Source: Alloascoidea hylecoeti
Taxonomy: Eukaryota
Reading direction: 5' to 3'
DNA: 64,000 bases
Assembly: GCA_001600815.1 (NCBI GenBank)
Contig: BCKZ01000003.1
Span: 186,001-250,000, forward strand
The notes below the pieces were generated by a model. It made no database searches and was not told where the DNA came from. It worked only from the letters and a program-made list of their open reading frames with translations. Positions 1-62,223 of this stretch are shown piece by piece. Every line of letters starts with the position of its first letter. Position 1 is the first letter of the stretch. A program made the translations under genes and the position numbers.

Positions 1-812
1 ATATATATTTAGATTCATTATTAATGAAATATGCCCTATTGTAACGTCATGTTTCAATGGTAATCTCAGCGGCATGTTAATTGTGACCAATATATATGCA
101 TAAATAGCTATTCAAGCCTGATATTAATATAAGAACTTATATATACCATTATAAGTAGGCTACAATCATATTAATATTAATTTCAACAACTTTCCGTCTA
201 TCTACGTATACATTAATACAACACTTATAAATTTGTTCAACTGCAAGCAGTGTACTAATTATTTCGGGGCAAATTTACATCTCAAAGCGCCAGCTTAAGA
301 AATTTGGATCCAATTACAGTTTTTAAATTTTCTAATTGCAATTGTTTTACCTTCTTCATTTGTATATTATAATCATTTTCAGCTCATTATGAATATAAAA
401 ATAATTAATTACACCATATAACCCTTTGCAACTCAATTATAGCCATGGTATTTTTAAATTTAATCGCAAGCGGTTGTATATGGATGGTATCATCAATATT
501 AATTCCAATGATCTGCATATACATATGGGAAGTTAATTAATAAATTTTATCCTTTAACAGAATTCGAAAATAGATATTTTAAAGAAATCTGACACTTCGT
601 ATATCGTACAGTCTTAATTTCAGCCATTATTATTATTAATTATTGGTAATTTCAATAACTAATATTCCGTCGGGTTTGGTACCCGAAGCTGTCATATTCA
701 TATTATTAATGGGTCTTTTTTTTTTTCAAGTGCCCATTAAGGCTCTATCTTAAACTTCTATATCTAGTAATCAGAACGTGACCTAGTGAAAAAAAAAACC
801 AATAAAAAGTAG

Positions 813-900
813 CTCCCACACAGGGGCTCGAACCCTGGACATTTCGGTCAGCTTCTAACTTTCTAAAAGCCGAACGCTCTACCAACTGAGCTATGCGGGA
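813..900 (-). tRNA. tRNA-Lys(TTT) with 15-nt intron
   Basis: Reverse complement folds as a cloverleaf: TCCCGCA acceptor, D arm GCTC-AGTTGGTA-GAGC, anticodon arm TTCGG-CT-TTT-A[GAAAGTTAGAAGCTG]A-CCGAA, T arm CAGGG-TTCGAGC-CCCTG. It closely resembles yeast tRNA-Lys(UUU) and is followed by a T-run. Confidence 0.96.
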
Positions 901-958
901 GATTTACAAACGTCAAGGAGGAACTCACGGTCCTATAGCCACCATCAGGTAAAAAAAG

Positions 959-1935
959 GAAAATATATGAAGTTAAAAAAAAAAAGAAAGATCACTATAA
1001 ATAGTAGAGATTTCCTCAGAATATACATAGTTTCTAGTTATATAATCTAATTGGAAAATATATGAAAAGTTAAAAAAAAATTGATTCTACTCCTGAAATA
1101 CATTCCACAGTTCTTGAACTAGCTAGTTCGGGGATATATACAATTATATTGCATTCTTACCGCACATTTAATACCTTAGTATGTTTATTACTTCTAGGAC
1201 TTTTTCTATTAATAGCTTTTGGATTTATCTATATAAGCGTAGGATAAATCCCACTTTAGAGGGAAGTCAGTTTTAATACACTTTTTATCTTGATCTTAAT
1301 AAGCCGAGTATTGGTTGCTTCAGATACATAAGTTATTAACCAGTTCCAACGCTTACCTTACATATCTTAGGTGGATTTTAGCTATGATATTGACAAAATG
1401 AGAGACAATTAAAAAACACAAAAAAGAATCAAAATTAATGGTGGTTTGAGTAAAATAAGAACGAACTAAATCTTGTCAGAGAAAGAAGAAAAATATAAAT
1501 ATTTAAATGTCGAGGTTTTTCACTATATGAGTGGTTTCCTCACTTAAATAGTTTCTCGTTTTAATTGGAAATTTTATATAAAAGTAAAAAAGAGTGTTAC
1601 AATTGTCTCACGCATAGTGAGACTTCATCCGTTAATAGAATTTCCTCCTGCCCGGTATTTAAGGATTTTTTTTATTGTTTTACTGTCCCAAGGATTTAGA
1701 TATTAAGATGCCCACTCTATTTTATTTAGCAAAGGCACTGGAATTAAGAAAGAGCATAAGATACAGGGACACAACCGCAAATTTAAATAAAATAGGCTGG
1801 GCATTTTAATATTTAAATCCTTGAGAAAATAAAACAATAAAAAAATAATTTAAAACCAATGGTGGTTTCGATAATCTTATCAGAGAAGGAAGAAAAATAA
1901 ATATGAAAAGGTAGAGGATTTTCACTATATTTGAG
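959..1935 (+). mobile_element. Stack of 5'-truncated L1-like non-LTR retrotransposon 3' ends on the plus strand (approx. 959-985, 992-1080, ~1400-1592, ~1740-1935)
   Basis: 992-1080 (TCACTATA..AGTAGAGATTTCCTCAGAATATACATAGTTTCTAGTTATATAATCTAATTGGAAAATATATGAAAAGTTAAAAAAAAA) is the near reverse complement of 60574-60660, the tail of the RT-bearing copy. 1764-1830 matches the 60790-60852 part of that copy. Confidence 0.85.
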
Positions 1936-1999
1936 AGTTAATATAATATTTCTGGCGGGTTCTGGCGTATTTGATACTTTTTAATTCTAGATCTAGTGC

Positions 2000-3389
2000 C
2001 TTTACTATAAGGTTATAAACTCGTCCTTCTTTCTCATATTTTTTTCTTTGATATTATCAATCCTTTGATTCCTACTCTGTAGGATCTTAACATCATTTTC
2101 TCTACCATTTTTATGGTAGAGCATTTTTCAAACATATGCTTTATATCATCTTTTCCTTGTTGAACTAAACTACATAACTGATTTTTGCCACTAATATTTT
2201 GTATTCTAGATTTAATTGATGTAAATCACCTTAGTTACGTATCACAAGCTAAAAAGATGAGTACTTAGTGTTTCCTCTGGGTGTTCTTGTAAGATTCTTT
2301 GATGTTTCCCCATAATTTCTTCCAATCTTCTTTTTTTAAACTTTGAACTCAAGAAGGTTGCTTATAGTCTATATGTTGGGTTATTCATTGGTTTATTTAT
2401 CGTTAATTAGTCGTTACTTCCGACATTTCGTATGCTCTTAATACAATCTCATCCTCGAATTCACCCAATTTTTTCTTACTTTATAAATACGTATAATTTT
2501 CAATTAAAATTTTAACCATAGAAACTATTTAAGTGAGATTTTTTTAACTTTACATATAATTTCCGATTAAAACTTTTAAATAATTTAAACCTGTTAAGAG
2601 GAAACTACTAAATTGAGAAAATCACACATAGAGTATTTTTTTTTTAACTTTACACATAATTTCCAATTAAATGACTAGTACTAACTAGAAACTATTTAAA
2701 GAAGGAGGTCATTCATAGAATGAAGACCCTCATTATCTGATTACATCTTTCTTTCATCTTTCTTGTCCTTCTCCTTTTTCTTATTTATTTATACCACCAT
2801 ATTGGCTGAATGTTTTTTATTTTCCAGGTATCTTGATATTAAGATACACTAATAAAATTCTGTGAGTAATTGTGGTTTTGTTCAATTTATTATAATTATA
2901 TGTTTTCTAATTCTATTGTTTTGATAATATTATATACTGTTTTTTCCATATTATATTTATGATCTGTATCTGTTTCGTTTATATAAAAACCTCTTCTTCT
3001 TAACTTATTTTTGACTCTCTTTTCTGTTTTTCTTGTACTTATTACTTTTCTTTATCTTACCACCATGTTTTTCGTTTTGTTTTGCTTTTCATAATATTTA
3101 GCTTAAATACTTTGATAATATCTTTCAATCATAAGATAATAATTTAACATTCTTTGTGTTTTTTTTTTTTTTAACTTTATATATTTTCCAATTAAATTAT
3201 ATAACTAGAAACTATGTAAATTCTGAAGAAATCTCTACTATATATATAAAAACCTCTTTCTCTAATCTTCTTATTTTTGTGTATTCTTGCCACTCTTTTT
3301 TCTTCTCTTATGAACCTAGACCACCTTAAAAGTAATTTTTTTTTTATTAGATATTTTTTACTTTTTCAAGTTTTTAGATAACCAAGAAT
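2000..3389 (-). mobile_element. Stack of 5'-truncated L1-like fragments on the minus strand (approx. 2000-2345 zinc-finger region, tails at 2469-2537, 2539-2634, 2636-2880, 2940-3130, 3159-3389)
   Basis: Minus-strand translation of ~2100-2345 gives degenerate LKKEDWKKLWGNIKESY.EHPEET and CSL.QQGKDDIKHMFEKCST, matching 60876-61130. Repeated poly(T)+AACTTT...TAGAAACTAT tails are visible. 3159-3389 aligns with 60574-60810. Confidence 0.85.
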
Positions 3390-3446
3390 TTTCCCATTGC
3401 TAGGGTGCTAGTGGTTCATTAGTAATAGTCGCTACAAAACAAAAAA

Positions 3447-3519
3447 GCCTTGATGGCCAAGTTGGTAAGGCGTAACACTAGTAATGTTAAGATCGTTGGT
3501 TCGAATCCGACTTGAGGCA
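3447..3519 (+). tRNA. tRNA-Thr(AGT)
   Basis: GCCTTGATGGCCAAGTTGGTAAGGCGTAACACTAGTAATGTTAAGATCGTTGGTTCGAATCCGACTTGAGGCA: 73-nt cloverleaf, AGT anticodon, followed by a T-run. Confidence 0.96.
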
Positions 3520-29658: not shown

Positions 29659-32600
29659 TCACAATTGTGACTTAAGATTACCATCAATTTCACCTTGATA
29701 TTGCTCATAAAAAGACCAAGGATATATAGGAGCAGGAGTTGGAGCAAGAGGTAATGATGATTTAAAATCAGCATTATTTGTAATTAAATAACCTGTTGGA
29801 TAATTTTCTGGATATTCTTCATTAAAGGATTTTATTGTAACATTAATAGCATTTTCTAAAATATTTTCCACATCGGTAACATCAGGATTAAAAATTTCCT
29901 TTAACTTTGGAATCAATTTGCTTAAATTTGAAATTGTTAAAAGATCTTCATGATCATTAATAATTGAATCTAATTTATTTGAACTAAAATCAATTTTTAA
30001 TGAATAAAAATAATTTGATAATGATGAAGTAATTAATTTTGTTGTTGATTGTTTAACAGGTGATTGAGATTTTAAATGTAAAACATGTTTTGATCTTTCA
30101 TTTGATCTTGGATCAATAAATTTATAATAAAATTCTAATATATCTTTTTTTGTTAAAGTTTTTAAAATTTTAACATCTTCTTCATTTTTTTGAAAATTAT
30201 AAAAACCTGATGAAATATGATCCCAAAATCTATAATATTCTTCATTTAAATTTTTTAATGATTCTAATTTTTCAATTATTAATGAATCAATATTTTTTTG
30301 AAATTCTTCATCATTCATTTCTAAAATTATTTTTTCTAATAATATTAAAAATTCATCAATTCTATATTCTAAATATGGTGTTTCACGTTCACTTTGAATG
30401 ATAATTCTATAACCTTTCTTTGTCCTTGTTGGCATTACACCACTAAAAACAACATAACCTAATTGTTCTTTTGAACGTAATTGATTAAAAGCTGGTTCAC
30501 TACCAATTTGAGCAAATAATGAAAGTAAAGATCTTAAACGAATATCAGTGTTATCACAAACTTGTAAATAATAATTAATTGCTGAATTAATTTCTTTTGA
30601 ATCTTCCAAAATAACTTCAGATCTAAAAGTTTTCCCAATAGGTAAAATAACATTTCGAAGTAAAATTTTATTTGATTCAGGTAATGGGGTTGGTTTTAAA
30701 ATATCATCAACTAAATGTCCAAATTCAATTGCTTCATCATATTCTAAATTACCATGAACTAAAACTTGAGTTTGTAACTGACTTAATAAAACAGGAATTA
30801 ATCTTTTAAAAGAATCAAAATCAATAAGTTCCAATTGTTTAATTTTTTCTTGATAACTAACAGTTTTTTCATTAAGAGATAATAAAGTTAATCCAGTAAT
30901 TTGTAAATAAGGACTTTTAAAAGAAGAATTTTTATAATTTTTTAATAATTTTTCTTTTAATGATTTAAATTTTAATTCATCAATTTCAAAATTTTTAATA
31001 AATTTAAAAAATTTAATTAATAATAAATTTAATTTTTGATTGTAGCCAAAAACTGAAAATCTAAATCCATCACGAGTAGTACCAAATGAATATGTAAGAC
31101 CACCCATTATTGCATCATAGGATACATCATTAAACGCATCATCAATAATATCTGAATATAATTCAGAAATTGCTACAAAATATGGTGTTGATGTTGAAAT
31201 TGGAGATTTTAAATCAATTCCAACAACAGCTTTTGGAACCCAAAAAGTATCATCTTTTTTATACCAAATTTTCAAATCACTAGTATTTTCAATAAGGGTC
31301 GGTTGTTTAGCAGGTGGAGTTAATAATGTTTTCCTATGAACTGTAAAATCTGTTGGAATGAATTCATTTGGAGAAGGTAAGTGAAGATCAGGATTTGGAG
31401 ATGCATTTGCAAGTAAATTTAAGAAGCTAGGATCAATATCTTTATATGAATATTCAACACCATACCATTTCTCACGTAGATTCAATTCTTCTGAAACATT
31501 TGAAGTTAAAAATAATCTCAAATTGCTGGGAGTAAGATATGAAAGATATTCTTTGATTCCTTCTGGATTGAATTTACTAACCAGTGTTGAGTCTAAAATA
31601 TATTCACGATCAACATGATTTTTTTGCAAAGTACTCGATAAAGTAGAAACAGTCGTAGCAGCTCTTGATTTTTGTCTAAATTTAAAACTCATCGCCAAGA
31701 TGTTTTTAATTTCATTATAAAACCATTCTTGTGGTGGAGTATTTTGTAATATTTTAATATATTGAAAAACAGCAATTAAAACCTCTTTATAATGAATAAG
31801 ACCATTAGAAGTTAAATCAATGTTTCCAGTTAAGCAATCTGCACCAGCGGTTATATGAGAATGACCCACACTTAAATCAGTAGCCCAACCTTTCTGTTTC
31901 AAATAAAATAAAATCGAACCCTTAGCTTCATGACCGAGAAGGCTTGATATATATCTACTGGATTGATCACGCCAATGGGGGGTTTGATCTGGTAAAGGAA
32001 AAGTAAATTTAAATGTTCTCTTTTCCTTAACTGGGGCCCATTTTACTATTTTTGCAGTTTCATTCGATGAAAAAGGGATTGTATCATATGAAGGAGTAGG
32101 TCTATCATAATTTTGTATTTGAGAGAATTTTTCAAGTACCCAAGATTCCAATACATCTAAAGGTTCTCTACCCAAAACAGCCAATTTCATAATATTTGAA
32201 GAGTAATGATTTTTATGAAATTTTAGTAATTCTTCTCTAACGTCTTGACCACGAGATAAAGGCAAAGAGCCTAAAGATTCAAAATTTCCAGTACTAAAAC
32301 CATTATAAGGGTGATTTACATTTGAAGTTGTTTTCTCAACCTGATAGGAGCGCCATAAATCATCTTGTAGATTTTTTTTATTTTCCGAATCGACTGCATT
32401 TATTTCACGATCTTTACAATCAGGACTAAACAACGGAGAAATAAAAAATTGAGCAAACCTATCAAGTGCGCCTTCCAAAAATTCGTGGCCAACTTCGAAG
32501 AAATAGTTTGTTTCCTCGGAAGCAGTGTAAGCGTTTGAATAACCTGAATGTTTAGATAGATATTGGGCATAGTCATTTTCGGAGGGATATTTTTCATTTC

Positions 32601-32904
32601 CCATAAATAACAAATGCTCACAGAAATGGGCGAGTCCTGGTAAGTCCTTTGGGTCAGCAAGGGAGCCCACATTCACATCGAGGGCCGCAGCGGATTTATC
32701 AGTGGTTGGGTCATGGATAAGTATCGCCTCTAGCTGGTTAGGAAGACGGATGATCTTATAAGATCTGTCATCCAAATCCGGTTTTACGACGGATGAAGTA
32801 ACGATTTCGATTTGGGGGACAGTCATGGTGGAAAGTAAGCCGGTGAAGAGGAAAGGAAGAGAAGAGTTTGAGAAGAGATAAAGTAGAGGGAACTTCAGCA
32901 GCAT
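29659..32904 (-). CDS. STE23: M16A insulinase-family metalloprotease; alternative start at 32826
   Basis: DDRSYKIIRLPNQLEA, inverted zinc motif GLAHFCEHLLFMG, and FNQLRSKEQLGYVV. Confidence 0.92.
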   Translation of the reverse strand: MLLKFPLLYLFSNSSLPFLFTGLLSTMTVPQIEIVTSSVVKPDLDDRSYKIIRLPNQLEAILIHDPTTDKSAAALDVNVGSLADPKDLPGLAHFCEHLLFMGNEKYPSENDYAQYLSKHSGYSNAYTASEETNYFFEVGHEFLEGALDRFAQFFISPLFSPDCKDREINAVDSENKKNLQDDLWRSYQVEKTTSNVNHPYNGFSTGNFESLGSLPLSRGQDVREELLKFHKNHYSSNIMKLAVLGREPLDVLESWVLEKFSQIQNYDRPTPSYDTIPFSSNETAKIVKWAPVKEKRTFKFTFPLPDQTPHWRDQSSRYISSLLGHEAKGSILFYLKQKGWATDLSVGHSHITAGADCLTGNIDLTSNGLIHYKEVLIAVFQYIKILQNTPPQEWFYNEIKNILAMSFKFRQKSRAATTVSTLSSTLQKNHVDREYILDSTLVSKFNPEGIKEYLSYLTPSNLRLFLTSNVSEELNLREKWYGVEYSYKDIDPSFLNLLANASPNPDLHLPSPNEFIPTDFTVHRKTLLTPPAKQPTLIENTSDLKIWYKKDDTFWVPKAVVGIDLKSPISTSTPYFVAISELYSDIIDDAFNDVSYDAIMGGLTYSFGTTRDGFRFSVFGYNQKLNLLLIKFFKFIKNFEIDELKFKSLKEKLLKNYKNSSFKSPYLQITGLTLLSLNEKTVSYQEKIKQLELIDFDSFKRLIPVLLSQLQTQVLVHGNLEYDEAIEFGHLVDDILKPTPLPESNKILLRNVILPIGKTFRSEVILEDSKEINSAINYYLQVCDNTDIRLRSLLSLFAQIGSEPAFNQLRSKEQLGYVVFSGVMPTRTKKGYRIIIQSERETPYLEYRIDEFLILLEKIILEMNDEEFQKNIDSLIIEKLESLKNLNEEYYRFWDHISSGFYNFQKNEEDVKILKTLTKKDILEFYYKFIDPRSNERSKHVLHLKSQSPVKQSTTKLITSSLSNYFYSLKIDFSSNKLDSIINDHEDLLTISNLSKLIPKLKEIFNPDVTDVENILENAINVTIKSFNEEYPENYPTGYLITNNADFKSSLPLAPTPAPIYPWSFYEQYQGEIDGNLKSQL

Positions 32905-33610: not shown

Positions 33611-34085
33611 TTTTTTTTTTAACTTTATAATAATTTAAATAATTTAAATCTTCTAACTAAAAACTATTAAATTGAGGAAATCACAAAGAATATAAAACCT
33701 CCGCTTCTTCTTTATTTCGTTGTATCTCTTTATCTTATCGCCATGTTATTTTTTAATTTTTTTTAATTTTTTATTTTTATCTCAAATATGTTGACAATAA
33801 AATACCCCAATCTATTTCATTTAATAGTTCCGGTGGTGATCCTCCAAATTTGATGCTTCGTCTACCTTTGAGATGAAAAGGCCTTTCTTTTTTATATTTT
33901 TTCCATCTTTATCTATTATCAGATTTTTGATATCTATTGTTTCTAGTATTTTCTTTTCTATTATTTTCACTGTATTACACTCTTCAAAAATATGATTAAT
34001 ATCATCTTTCCTATTTTGACAAAGACTACAAATATCTGATTTGTGCCACCATTCTTTCGCATTTTTATTGACATCTAACATATGT
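33611..34085 (-). mobile_element. 5'-truncated L1-like retrotransposon (zinc-finger C-terminus, 3' tail, poly(A)) upstream of tRNA-Asn
   Basis: HMLDVNKNAKEWWHKSDICSLCQNRKDDINHIFEEC, then after a frameshift GGSPPELLNEIDWGIL, is homologous to 60800-61000. Ends in AAAGTT+poly(A) at 33611-33626. Confidence 0.88.
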
Positions 34086-34117: not shown

Positions 34118-34191
34118 GACTTCGTGGCCAAGCTGGTTAAGGCGTGCGACTGTTAATCGCAAGATCGAGAGTTCAATCCTCTCCGAGGTCG
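34118..34191 (+). tRNA. tRNA-Asn(GTT)
   Basis: GACTTCGTGGCCAAGCTGGTTAAGGCGTGCGACTGTTAATCGCAAGATCGAGAGTTCAATCCTCTCCGAGGTCG cloverleaf, followed by a T-run. Confidence 0.96.
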
Positions 34192-34219
34192 CTTCTTTTT
34201 TACAATTTCTATGTTTCCA

Positions 34220-35331: not shown

Positions 35332-35744
35332 ATTACATACACAATGATGACCTTTTGTTGAAGCTTGTAAAAGTTATTGTTGATATAATTCAAATTTTTA
35401 ATTGATCCCTTATAATAATGTTGTAGAAACTTTTTTCAATAGTAATTAAAGGCTGTATTTTAATATTTAATATCCATTACTGTTAATTATTAATATCATA
35501 TCAAAAATTAGATATAACGTGACTCCAATTAGATCTTCAAATTTTTCATTGCTTACTTCAAATTTCTTTGATCAATTTTGATTCCTTTATTTATTAATTT
35601 TATTTCCTTGATAACTCCTTGTTTCTACTTCTGATTCTTTGGGTATATTTTAAGTATTCTCTATCTGATATATTGCGATTGTTGCATTTTATAGTTTATA
35701 GTGCCATCACCTAAAAAAAAAAAAAAAAGAAAAAAAAAAAAACG

Positions 35745-36917
35745 ATGTCAAATTTCTCACCTTCACACATCCAAAATATATCATCATCATCCAATTCAAC
35801 CACAAATATGCATATCCAAGTCCCAACCCCTTCAGCTACAGATGAAGAGTTTTCGAGTGATGAATCTTCTGCTACACAACCTGTAATACCAGTAGTGGGA
35901 CGTACAGGTTCGTTACAACAGAAACAAATAGATAAAGTGAAAGTTGACCCATGGGTTCATTTTTTTGCTGGAGGAGTTGGAGGAATGACTGGTGCTTTAT
36001 TTACATGTCCTCTAGATGTTGTTAAAACTCGTTTACAAAGTGATTTCTATCAAGCTAGATTTGCAAACGCGAAAGCTACATCAAGCAATCCAATAAAAGC
36101 AGCAGCTAGACATTTTGGTGAAACATTTAGTATCATATATGATGTTTATAAGATTGAAGGTACGAGAGCTCTATTTAAAGGTTTAGGTCCAAACCTTGTT
36201 GGTGTTATTCCAGCTCGTTCAATAAATTTTTTCACTTATGGTTTAGGTAAAGACTTTATTTCAAATAATTTTAATGATGGTAAAGAAAGTCCTTGGGTTC
36301 ATTTATTAGCAGCTGCAAATGCTGGTATTGTTACATCAACAGCAACAAATCCAATTTGGTTAGTAAAAACCCGATTACAATTAGACAAGAATAATTCTCT
36401 GGGTGTTCGAAAATATAAAAATTCATGGGATTGTATTGTAAGTGTTTGCAAAAATGAAGGTATAAGGGGATTATATAAAGGTTTATCTGCCTCATATTTA
36501 GGTGCCACCGAAAGTACCATACAATGGGTGTTATACGAACAAATGAGGACAATCATTAATCAAAGAACTTTAAGAAGACAAGAAGAAGGTGTTGAAATTA
36601 CCTTTATGGATAAATTATCAGATTGGGGCGCAAGATCTGGTGCTGCTGGTTTTGCTAAAATGTTAGCTTCAATTCTTACTTATCCCCATGAAGTTGTTCG
36701 AACTAGGTTAAGACAAGCTCCAATGTCTGATGGAAGACCAAAATATACTGGTTTGGTTCAATGCTTTAAATTAGTATTAAAAGAAGAAGGATTAGTTTCA
36801 ATGTATGGTGGGTTAACTCCTCATTTATTAAGAACTGTTCCAAATAGTATTATCATGTTTGGAACGTGGGAATTGATTATTAGAATGTTTTCAAAGGAAA
36901 AGCAAACCACCTTTTAA
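35745..36917 (+). CDS. RIM2: Mitochondrial pyrimidine nucleotide carrier
   Basis: Three carrier repeats (PLDVVKTRLQ, PIWLVKTRLQ, PHEVVRTRLRQ) plus Rim2-typical PWVHF.AGG and GLGPNLVGVIPARSINF. Confidence 0.92.
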   Translation: MSNFSPSHIQNISSSSNSTTNMHIQVPTPSATDEEFSSDESSATQPVIPVVGRTGSLQQKQIDKVKVDPWVHFFAGGVGGMTGALFTCPLDVVKTRLQSDFYQARFANAKATSSNPIKAAARHFGETFSIIYDVYKIEGTRALFKGLGPNLVGVIPARSINFFTYGLGKDFISNNFNDGKESPWVHLLAAANAGIVTSTATNPIWLVKTRLQLDKNNSLGVRKYKNSWDCIVSVCKNEGIRGLYKGLSASYLGATESTIQWVLYEQMRTIINQRTLRRQEEGVEITFMDKLSDWGARSGAAGFAKMLASILTYPHEVVRTRLRQAPMSDGRPKYTGLVQCFKLVLKEEGLVSMYGGLTPHLLRTVPNSIIMFGTWELIIRMFSKEKQTTF

Positions 36918-60323: not shown

Positions 60324-60373
60324 TTTTTTTTTAACTTTACATAATTTCCGATTAAAACTTCTAACTAGAAACT
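60324..60373 (-). mobile_element. Very short 3' tail of the L1-like element
   Basis: poly(T)-AACTTTACATAATTTCCGATTAAAACTTCTAACTAGAAACT matches the tails at 2539 and 2636. Confidence 0.75.
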
Positions 60374-60573
60374 TGACCTTGACCCCCATTAAAGTCTTTT
60401 TTAAGGGGAGGATTCATTATTTTGTTCGTTGGTTATAATACAGTTTATTCATCGTTTATTACCCATTATTTCTTAAATTGCTTTTTATGTTATTAGGGAG
60501 CTAAACATAGGTAATAGAATCTCGTTCTCGATTTCAACCCCAGCTGAAATTTTAATTTTTTTTAATAATTTTC

Positions 60574-62080
60574 TTTTTTAACTTTTCATATATATTTTTT
60601 ATTGAATTATATAACTAGAAACTATGTAAATTCTGACGAAATCTCTACTCTATATAGTGAAATAAAAACCTCTCTTTCTATTCTTCTTATTTTTGTGTAT
60701 TCTTGACACTATTCTTTCTTCCCTTCTTATGTACCTAGACCACCTTTAAAGCAAATCTTTTTTTTTTTTTCAGATATATTTTACTTTTTCAAGTTTTTAA
60801 ATATTAGAATCCCCCAATCAATCTCATTTAATATTTGTGGTGGTGTCCCTGCAAATCTAATATTTTTCCTTAGATTTAGTGCCTTATGGTTGAGCAGTCT
60901 TCAAATAGATGTAATATGTCTTTACCTTGTTGACATAAACTACAAGTATCAGATTTTTTTGCATTTTTGTTAGGATGTAGCATATGATTAACGTATCCCA
61001 AGCTGAGTAAATGTATCCATTGTGTCTCCTCAGGGTGTTCCTTATATGTTTCTTTGATAAATCCCCACCATTTCTTCCAATTTTCATTTTTTAGTTCCGG
61101 AATTAACTGCATCCATTTGTTTGGTTTCAATATAATTTTGTTTTTATTATACCACTTCTAGGTTATTGATTTAATCGAGTATTTGGATATGTTTTCTTCT
61201 TCCATGTATTTTATTCTTTTTTCGATATCTTCACCTGCTGGGGTTTCCACCAGTTTTTGTAACGCTTCATTTAATGCTGTTGCTATATTTTCCAAGAATT
61301 CTCTCATTAACTTTGCTTAGTCTTCGTCACCTTGCAATGCACTCTACATCCAGCTAGCTTAACGACCTAATAATTGCTTTTTTAGGTCGCTTAAACCAAA
61401 ACCATCAGCTGAAATGGGAGTTTTCAATTTTTCAAGAGCAATGGTTGTTGTCCAGGGAGATATCGCTTTTTTGCTTCATTTTCTATCTTCTCTATTGTTT
61501 GTTGTGGAATTGGCTAAAATTCGTTAAGAAACTGTATTTTGGAGAATTGTTGCTCTATCATTTTCATTATTTTATTCTCGAACTTAGACCATTGAACTCC
61601 TAAAATGGGAACTCCAATATGGGTCATATTTTTCAGATCATCTGTTTCATAATTTAAAGTTGATTTGAATATTCCATTTTCTCTTCTCCTTTGGTTTTCA
61701 TTATTAAAATAATATATGGATGATTTTGATCGATTTACTTTTGAATCCGACACATTTCAAATTCATCGAGAGTGTATTTTAGTAGGTTATGTTCGTTTTT
61801 ATTCAGCAATATGACGGAACAATCATCCGCGAAGGCTAGATTTTGAAAACGAATATTTGTCAGTGTCGAAGAGATATTCCTTTTAACCTATGGCTCAATA
61901 AGTTTGAGAGTGGCTCCAAACATAAATTAAAGATGATGGGTGCGACTGGGTTACCCTGCCTGACACCTTTAGACATTTTGAAGAGCTCACTAATAGTATC
62001 GTTTAGAACTTGACCTAGATTTTCACTAACTGCTACATTCAACAGGTTCATGAATCTGGAGCCAAAGTTAGCTTTTTCAA
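60574..62080 (-). mobile_element. 5'-truncated, internally deleted L1-clade non-LTR retrotransposon (RT, zinc finger, poly(A)) upstream of tRNA-Leu
   Basis: Minus strand: EKANFGSRF, GVRQGNPVAPIIFNLCLEPL, LAFADD (FADD at 61822-61833), SKVNRSKS, HIGVPI, PISADGFGLSDL, W..WW, CSLC..HLFEDC, then a short 3' UTR and an A-run. Several frameshifts and stops. Confidence 0.93.
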
Positions 62081-62140
62081 CGAAAGGAACAACAAAAATA
62101 ATGAATGTGATGATGAGTTCCTTCACACCCACAAGAAATA

Positions 62141-62223
62141 GGAGGGTTGGCCGAGTGGTCTAAGGCGGCAGACTTAAGATCTGCTGGACGTTGTCCGCGC
62201 GAGTTCGAACCTCGCATCCTTCA
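62141..62223 (+). tRNA. tRNA-Leu(TAA)
   Basis: GGAGGGTTGGCCGAGTGGTCTAAGGCGGCAGACTTAAGATCTGCTGGACGTTGTCCGCGCGAGTTCGAACCTCGCATCCTTCA, with a long variable arm; nearly identical to yeast tRNA-Leu(UAA). Confidence 0.97.

Follow-up and report, generated by a model that had tools for sequence, protein, structure and literature searches.

LINE 3' ends stacked upstream of tRNA genes in a 64-kb window of an ascomycete yeast suggest a Zorro-related element that aims at tRNA genes

The DNA studied here comprises 64,000 nucleotides (nt) of the Alloascoidea hylecoeti genome (contig BCKZ01000003.1, positions 186,001 to 250,000); it is referred to below as the window and numbered from its first letter. Near its left end, two divergent tRNA genes are separated by a spacer of 2.55 kb (901–3446), and about 2.1 kb of this spacer (82%) is derived from a long interspersed nuclear element (LINE), in the form of 11 fragments of 5'-truncated debris of a retrotransposon without long terminal repeats (non-LTR). 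Pieces of the same LINE lie upstream of all four tRNA genes of the window and nowhere else in its 64 kb, as seen both by blastn with a reference copy and by a profile search. We consider it probable that the spacer holds the dead remains of an L1/Zorro-like LINE family with poly(A) tails that hits sites upstream of tRNA genes, and that this explains the whole arrangement. The data suggest that the LINE aims at tRNA genes like some elements of amoebae. The case is best filed as a tRNA-gene-associated LINE of the Zorro/L1 lineage in an ascomycete yeast, with confidence limited by the number of loci (four) and the lack of an intact element.

The tRNA genes were identified by ARAGORN; the two genes that flank the spacer were scored with the Rfam tRNA model as well. 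These four loci of one 64-kb window constitute the sample.

812–900, minus strand: tRNA-Leu(UAG; anticodon TAG), ARAGORN, Rfam tRNA 56.7 bits; left anchor of the spacer.
3447–3519, plus strand: tRNA-Thr(AGU), ARAGORN, Rfam 63.9 bits; right anchor of the spacer.
34118–34192, plus strand: tRNA-Asn(GTT), ARAGORN.
62141–62223, plus strand: tRNA-Leu(UAA), ARAGORN.

The left anchor had been taken for a tRNA-Lys in an initial annotation made from the letters alone; the ARAGORN call replaces it with a tRNA-Leu with the anticodon TAG, a long-arm tRNA of 89 nt.

The 1.58-kb LINE piece upstream of tRNA-Leu(UAA) (60560–62140, minus strand), which is independent of the spacer, served as the blastn query. 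The copies outside the spacer are as follows; open reading frame is abbreviated as ORF, reverse transcriptase as RT and untranslated region as UTR, and the alpha type is defined below.

33611 to ~34095, minus strand: N1, a single copy of ~480 nt, from the CCHC knuckle to the poly(A), with A10; upstream of tRNA-Asn.
60324–60546, minus strand: L2, the distal copy behind L1 at tRNA-Leu(UAA), with an ORF2-derived body, the terminal motif and A9.
60570 to ~62099, minus strand: L1, referred to below as the Leu(UAA) copy, a decayed 1.5-kb copy with RT motifs, the CCHC knuckle, the 3' UTR and a short A tail; alpha type.

N1 yields two blastn matches to the Leu(UAA) copy and a tblastx group with E 4.7e-17 that reaches 34090. 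L2 is recovered by nhmmer (E 4.6e-9) and is 70% identical to 2391–2443 in the spacer. An nhmmer profile built from nine 3' ends gave nine matches with E < 1e-6, all of them to its own training pieces and hence holding by construction; its informative part is the silence elsewhere in the window, where the next best match had E 0.9. Likewise, none of the 20 other runs of A or T of at least 8 nt in the window carries a LINE end, which indicates that A-tracts alone are not sufficient to attract the element. One of the tracts free of the LINE, at 35713–35742 (A16, one other base, A13), lies just upstream of an ORF at 35745–36917.

The geometry of the insertions is similar at the four loci. In all four tRNA-proximal copies the 5' end points toward the tRNA, as it does in 13 of the 14 fragments overall; N1, L2 and the Leu(UAA) copy are on the strand opposite to that of their tRNA. 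The initial annotation had proposed insertion at a fixed distance from each tRNA, and the distance is indeed similar and short: the 5' ends of the proximal copies are 57 bp from the mature tRNA 5' end at both spacer tRNAs (copies P1 and T1 below), 41–44 bp at tRNA-Leu(UAA) and 22–27 bp at tRNA-Asn. A profile of the ORF2 tail detected no LINE homology in any of the four flanks between tRNA and copy. Since the four loci carry four tRNA species and the truncation points differ, copying of a unit composed of a tRNA gene plus its flank is excluded.

The map of the spacer was drawn from self-comparison, tblastx, nhmmer and alignment.

901–957, no strand: flank of 57 bp that separates tRNA-Leu(UAG) from P1, ending in an A7 run.
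958–985, plus strand: P1, the 3'-terminal 17 nt of the LINE and A11; alpha type; 94% complementary to 3159–3189 over 31 nt.
992–1080, plus strand: P2, the 3'-terminal ~80 nt of the LINE and A9; alpha type; 87.8% identical to the Leu(UAA) copy by blastn.
1081 to ~1401, no strand: U, a segment without LINE match, 13% of the spacer.
~1402–1591, plus strand: A3, a diverged 3' UTR with the terminal motif and A6; 5' limit approximate; 85% identical to 1873–1930 over 60 nt.
1592–1731, minus strand: C, a LINE piece in the plus half; 73% identical to 60779–60830; tblastx match to the ORF2 tail.
1732–1930, plus strand: B, the ORF2 tail and part of the 3' UTR, without terminal motif and without poly(A).
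1934–2468, minus strand: M1, the ORF2 C-terminus (~530 nt) with the CCHC knuckle; 3'-truncated, without UTR or poly(A).
2469–2538, minus strand: T5, a 3' end of ~60 nt and A6; nhmmer profile E 1.2e-7.
2539–2635, minus strand: T4, a 3' end of ~90 nt and A7; 91% identical to 60326–60367; nhmmer E 1.8e-13.
2636 to ~2890, minus strand: T3, ~245 nt from the ORF2 tail to the 3' end and A10; nhmmer E 6e-17.
~2895–3158, minus strand: T2, a decayed copy directly after the poly(A) of T1; limits set by eye; no clear 3' end.
3159–3389, minus strand: T1, 217 nt of 3' UTR and A14; alpha type; proximal to tRNA-Thr.
3390–3446, no strand: flank of 57 bp between T1 and tRNA-Thr.

Six segments of the spacer match the Leu(UAA) copy by blastn: 992–1080 (plus strand, E 1.6e-23), 1732–1834 (plus, 3.6e-12), 2111–2174 (minus, 5.8e-7), 2237–2338 (minus, 2.5e-18), 2636–2700 (minus, 4e-4) and 3162–3380 (minus, 1e-55). 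The strongest of these belongs to T1 (84.7% identity over 235 nt), for which the nhmmer alignment ends at 3389; P2 is 92.9% identical to the T1 segment 3164–3246. The two matches in M1 show 77.7% and 79.7% identity, and M1 is also detected by a tblastx group (E 6e-13) and by nhmmer (E 7.5e-15). B is matched by blastn at 74.8% over 107 nt, by nhmmer at reference positions 1256–1409 and by tblastx. T3 has a tblastx match to the ORF2 tail at 2881–2822 and is found by nhmmer with N1 and T1 as queries. The decayed T2, at single-copy depth, is 71% identical to 33727–33799 and 82% to 3243–3275. A3 scores E 2e-14 with the nhmmer profile of 3' ends, of which it is itself a training sequence. A wide nhmmer envelope hinted that T1 might reach the tRNA; this was rejected, given that the aligned part stops at 3389 and the flank profile is empty. 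RNAalifold, applied to the 3' ends in search of a conserved RNA structure, predicted no pairs.

Thus LINE 3' ends are indeed stacked between divergent tRNA genes, as the initial annotation had it and well beyond what chance would give, and seven of the 11 fragments end in the family 3' motif followed by poly(A) in the alignment. They do not fill the whole spacer, as had also been claimed, given that 1081 to ~1400 matches neither the LINE reference nor the ORF2 proteins. Ten of the 11 fragments are oriented away from the tRNA on their own side. The proposed midway flip of polarity is located at 1931–1933, and the sign of the AT skew switches along with the map; the description fails for piece C (1592–1731), which lies on the opposite strand. 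The remark that poly(A) tails often abut the next fragment also proved right: in five of the seven cases the next piece on the same strand begins, with its truncated 5' end, 0–6 nt after the tail (P1>P2, T1>T2, T3>T4, T4>T5 and T5>M1).

Some of the 5' ends fall close together. Those of T1, T2, T3, B and C (~3389, 3158, 2890, 1732 and 1731) are within a ~75-nt stretch (reference 1256–1331) at the end of ORF2, about 240–320 nt from the 3' end, which may be a preferred stopping zone of the RT. M1 (at 2452–2468) and L2 (at 60530–60546), from different loci, start within ~5 nt of the same ORF2 point, both after an A run; given that ~45 pairs were compared, the coincidence may be due to chance or may reflect a preferred 5' end.

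The LINE family is, judging from its protein relatives, L1-like and Zorro-related. The reading frames of the Leu(UAA) copy are broken; it retains an FADD motif, a C-terminal Cys/His knuckle (weak zf-RVT) and an A-rich tail. Its segment 61860–62099 (minus strand) matches Pfam RVT_1 with E 4e-5, below the gathering score since the piece is only 79 aa long. In tblastn, the relative P0001 is 75% identical to this copy over 77 aa, and the homology of P0001 and P0003 ends at 62096–62099. We scanned 1.8 billion representative proteins with the 79-aa RT piece using phmmer (E <= 1e-3) and obtained 298 matches. The best one is a 108-aa fragment with 81% identity, and the next are full-length proteins of 1130–1177 aa with 38–45% identity that contain Exo_endo_phos and RVT_1 (E 1e-30 to 1e-35); Exo_endo_phos is carried by the relatives P0003, P0013, P0009 and P0010. 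Among the 15 top matches looked up, the named single-stretch relatives come from Candida dubliniensis ('L1-like non-LTR retrotransposon Zorro 1'), C. pseudojiufengensis and Sungouiella intermedia, and RT proteins of animals and plants are present likewise. P0009, which represents the Zorro1 cluster, is 44% identical to the query over its residues 5–77. Hallmarks of non-LTR elements are present: ten 3' ends with A6–A14, lengths from 17 nt to 1.5 kb, and no LTRs. A search of metagenomes with a 20-nt word from the alpha 3' end returned seven loci, none of them with a tRNA and none with wider similarity (one unrelated 73-nt match); we dismissed these as chance matches.

The copies show target-primed reverse transcription (TPRT) anatomy: their poly(A) is distal, and the side nearest the tRNA is the 5' end, truncated to a variable extent. 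The strict orientation, the 22–57-bp range and the empty A tracts elsewhere together point to a guide bound at tRNA genes. On the analogy of the Dictyostelium element TRE5-A, the LINE ribonucleoprotein would be drawn to the RNA polymerase III (Pol III) promoter complex, that is, to TFIIIB/TFIIIC. Its endonuclease would nick the tRNA-sense strand in a T-rich stretch ~20–60 bp upstream, the poly(A) of the RNA would anneal at the nick, and reverse transcription would proceed toward the tRNA. Both the nicked strand and the direction of synthesis are inferred from the copies being on the strand opposite to the tRNA, combined with the established TPRT model. A run of A or T at the nick would likely still be required. 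If synthesis typically aborts early, tail pieces of 17 to 530 nt would result. At back-to-back tRNA genes each gene would gather its own stack, and the polarity would then flip in the middle of the spacer. Later insertions would land between the tRNA and the older copies, which would put the abundant alpha copies nearest the tRNAs and decayed or rearranged pieces in the centre; this last step is partly supported by the order of the copies.

The order involves one subfamily in particular. P1, P2, T1 and the Leu(UAA) copy form the alpha subfamily, with 87–92% mutual identity over the common end; all other pairs of copies share 56–83%. Alpha is the tRNA-proximal type at all three loci that also hold other types. 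The statement of the initial annotation that the copies nearest the tRNAs are most alike and close to the Leu copy is therefore accurate for P2 and T1, which are 92–93% identical to each other and 87–88% identical to the Leu(UAA) copy. The pieces M1, B and C are the most decayed (66–80% to any other copy) and lie centrally. We also used contigs from two runs of one organism (X1 and X2) and from a wood-decay metagenome (X3), with contig depth computed at no less than 90% likeness. In X1 the summed contig depth over alpha pieces is 12393 and 9916 (T1) vs ~60 for unique bins, and at position 1047 in P2 another letter is carried by 22 distinct overlapping contigs; the bins at 1320–2489 are at single-copy depth. 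Depth is not copy number, and we take from it only that there are many near-identical alpha ends and none for the inner pieces.

Landing of new copies next to the tRNA is the best reading of this coarse order and is partly supported. The order is at best two-tiered and is not a fine chronological record. The initial annotation had proposed such a record; what stands of it is the proximal position of alpha at three of three loci, and what speaks against it is the absence of a gradient, the decay of T2, the rearranged centre and the lack of detectable target-site duplications (TSDs). Some runs (T3-T4-T5 and P1-P2) may have arisen by poly(A) nesting or template switching.

Several observations weigh against repeated insertion upstream of tRNA genes as the explanation of the whole. 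The first group concerns age. When nine 3' ends were compared with their majority consensus, identity showed no gradient with distance from the tRNA: it is 89% for T3 (556 bp), 88% for L2 (1594 bp), 84% for T1 (57 bp), 79% for the Leu(UAA) copy (41 bp) and 78% for N1 (22 bp). Hence the comparison of divergence with distance that the initial annotation had itself proposed gave no gradient, and its view that inner copies are more diverged does not hold uniformly; that impression arose in part because the inner copies belong to subfamilies other than that of the copy used as the yardstick. T3 and T4, farther out, are better preserved than T2, the neighbour of T1. The contigs of three studies agree over 1282–3065 (1282–2568 and 2549–3065 being covered in X1, X2 and X3) and break at the repeats, and so offer no evidence of presence or absence of copies; the only differences are in X3, namely a letter at 3015 and a T inserted after 2909 (one low-depth contig). 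The second group concerns targeting. The distance is not tight, at 22–57 bp, and it is known from only four tRNA loci in one window. A search for TSDs at seven copies gave no score above shuffled controls, including the Asn locus, where the tail of N1 merges with an A-rich stretch that is also found in the 5' flank. The Pol III initiation complex as the guide, and the targeting protein, are suggested by pure analogy. Neither ORF1 nor the endonuclease region is present in the window, all copies being truncated within or after the RT, and protein searches found no intact relative closer than 45%; a search for longer homologues, made with the RT piece and with P0001, gave nothing at its thresholds, which is weak evidence. 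Finally, the centre is not a simple stack, given the four pieces without a clear 3' end (C, B, M1 and T2), one of which (C) is on the wrong strand, and the 0–6-nt abutment of tails and 5' ends agrees with insertion into poly(A) tails no less well than with insertion at a fixed tRNA distance.

This last point leads to the alternative that survives best, although we judge it unlikely: a single founder was inserted near each tRNA, and subsequent Zorro3-like insertions went into the resident tails, so that only the founders were targeted and younger copies are distal. Passages in PMC7175516 and PMC1965478 describe integration of Zorro3 into poly(A) tracts with poly(A) on both sides, and the close abutment at five of seven tails, the lack of a detectable TSD and the position of the decayed T2 proximal to the better-kept T3 and T4 are all in line with such nesting. 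However, a newcomer could not land 5' of the founder, and the tight, high-copy alpha group is the most proximal type at three of three loci, which conflicts with the prediction that distal copies are younger, provided that alpha is the younger type. Moreover, none of the 20 other A/T runs is occupied.

Concatemers formed in single events are improbable. Here the RT would jump from the end of a truncated LINE RNA to the poly(A) of another within one round of TPRT, making the members of T3-T4-T5 and of P1-P2 equal in age. Template switching of Zorro3 in Saccharomyces cerevisiae is described in a part of PMC7175516, pieces of 17–97 nt are common in the spacer, and T3/T4, T4/T5, T5/M1 and T1/T2 abut directly without target sequence between them. 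But the stacked pieces differ in type (T3 and T4 are 94% identical over 33 nt only, and 64% over the common end), T5 is more decayed than T4, and the segregation of alpha from non-alpha copies is left unexplained.

Still less probable, in our estimate, is the absence of targeting, with insertion at random or into A-tracts and survival only in 'safe havens' upstream of tRNA genes, selection having removed the other copies from a compact genome. The region is indeed gene-dense, with 14 long uninterrupted ORFs of at least 250 aa in 64 kb (one encodes a carboxypeptidase-Y-like protein whose nearest protein clusters are ascomycete, which, like the relatives of the LINE, indicates a host of the budding-yeast type), and all copies seen are old and dead. 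Yet selection does not explain the orientation of 13 of 14 fragments or the 5' ends at 22–57 bp at four of four loci, and no LINE end occupies the other intergenic A/T tracts. Duplication, tandem or segmental, of a single block with LINE sequence can be dismissed as highly improbable: direct repeats with regular spacing exist (1402–1530 vs 1823–1930 at 402–421 nt; 2539–2571 vs 2639–2671 at 100 nt), but in the self-comparison likeness stops at the element ends, the sequence after each copy differs, no two fragments are truncated at the same point or have a junction in common, so that the spacings reflect related elements and the initial annotation was correct to propose independent truncations.

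B and M1 meet tail-to-tail, both without 3' ends and poly(A), which shows that the centre of the spacer was rearranged and not simply stacked. C and B, two ORF2-tail pieces in head-to-head arrangement, form an imperfect palindrome (1658–1728 and 1784–1854) with 71-nt arms that are 85% complementary and separated by 55 nt; a fold-back or template switch at insertion, or a later rearrangement, is a possible origin. An Rfam match to mir-3121 at 1698–1814 (32 bits vs the gathering score of 108) was rejected as a microRNA, being the palindrome.

Segment U (1081 to ~1400) matches neither the LINE reference, nor the ORF2 proteins, nor any other part of the window. Its part 1086–1319 is multi-copy, at 13–18x baseline depth in X1 and X2 (depth 799–1086 vs ~60 in X1), and X3 has next to no cover on 1086–1202; the AT skew of U is opposite to that of the adjoining plus-strand pieces. 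U may be a different, strain-variable repeat. A solo LTR was considered and rejected, as neither TG...CA termini nor a TSD could be made out convincingly and the window holds no further copy.

Contig joints such as 900->2638, 1080->1727 (X3 only) and 2671->3202 have sides of 21–33 nt that lie in repeats and may come from other loci. The first of them occurs in one contig each of X1, X2 and X3, where 28 nt ending at the 5' end of tRNA-Leu are joined to a T3-like poly(T) start. It probably represents another locus; if its two parts were truly adjacent, the LINE tail would face the tRNA, contrary to the orientation rule.

On the other side of tRNA-Leu(UAG), at 716–788 (minus strand), a unit of ~62 nt ending in A11 lies ~23 nt downstream of the gene, just past the T-run terminator and in the orientation of the tRNA. 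The bins at 618–851 are at 12–19x baseline depth in X1, a value that includes part of the multi-copy tRNA. The unit has no second copy within the window; a possible identity is the tail of a different retroposon, one with insertion sites downstream of tRNA genes. The window as a whole is AT-rich, with GC content of ~27–40% per kb; it falls to 21% at 30001–31000, within a 1081-aa ORF at 29659–32904 (minus strand).

Quite possibly, and we put this forward as a tentative proposal, an L1/Zorro LINE of a budding yeast has independently evolved TRE5-like, Pol III-guided integration that is orientation-specific and occurs 20–60 bp upstream of the gene. It would be the first such non-LTR element in fungi, and its mirror stacks would record waves of subfamilies. 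Targeting of tRNA genes by non-LTR elements has so far been documented only in social amoebae, and our searches of full-text literature, from which most subscription journals are absent, turned up no description of such an element in yeast or any other fungus. If the proposal is true, it would be one more instance of 'safe-haven' targeting that evolved convergently in a compact genome, from the Zorro lineage whose studied member targets poly(A) tracts, and the question of how a target-primed element reads a Pol III complex would enter organisms with strong genetics. The stacks themselves, which testify to repeated use of the same few sites and are no clean time series, are of modest interest.

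The closest named relatives are Zorro1, Zorro2 and Zorro3 of Candida albicans and C. dubliniensis, L1-like elements that carry an apurinic/apyrimidinic endonuclease (APE), an RT and a CCHC tail, Zorro3 also having poly(A). They are not associated with tRNA genes, in contrast to the LINE pieces found here, which occur only at tRNA genes in the window. Zorro3 is described in a passage of PMC1965478 as targeting poly(A) tracts with 'no particular association' with tRNA genes, and in one of PMC3956500 as having no TSD beyond poly(A); Zorro1 and Zorro2 appear in the relevant parts of PMC7175516 and PMC3956500 as subtelomeric and without a poly(A) tail. Targeting of poly(A) tracts of the Zorro3 type is not seen here, with no LINE end at any of the 20 A/T runs outside the zones upstream of tRNA genes.

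The tRNA-targeting elements of yeasts listed in a 2018 review are LTR elements only, Ty1–4 and Ty3-like (PMC5911963, section 11, Table 1). Ty3 and Ty1 of S. cerevisiae, Tca8/beta and Tj1 are aimed upstream of Pol III genes and leave layered solo-LTR relics (PMC5911963, section 11, Table 1). Unlike the LINE described here, Ty3 and Ty1 are LTR elements whose cDNA is inserted by an integrase, without poly(A) or 5' truncation. The transcription start is the insertion site of Ty3, and Ty1 goes into a region of ~1 kb.

The nearest parallel in geometry comes from the TRE5 elements of Dictyostelium discoideum. TRE5-A, like TRE5-B/C, is an APE-type non-LTR element ending in poly(A) or oligo(A). It is reported in PMC3159450 to insert ~50 bp upstream of the tRNA, which its 5' end faces, and the portions of PMC5911963 (Table 1), PMC3159450 and PMC5006619 (section 9) devoted to TRE5 give 40–54 bp upstream, opposite transcriptional orientation and the 5' end facing the tRNA. 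Binding of the TRE5-A ORF1 protein to TFIIIB subunits is stated in PMC5911963, and a footnote to Table 1 of PMC5006619 mentions repeated integration at one tRNA gene in dictyostelids. The differences are the host (an amoebozoan vs an ascomycete yeast), the looser distance here (22–57 bp) and the RT, which here is nearest to the Zorro type of Candida; descent of this LINE from TRE5 is unlikely, given that its named relatives are fungal. NLTR-B of Polysphondylium pallidum is another non-LTR element with the same geometry. According to the entries in PMC5911963 (Table 1) and PMC5006619 (section 9), it evolved independently and inserts 39–64 bp upstream of tRNA genes. Its host differs from that of the LINE described here, and it is unrelated to the TREs and has an RNase H domain, which is not seen in the relatives of this LINE; its existence shows that such targeting has arisen more than once.

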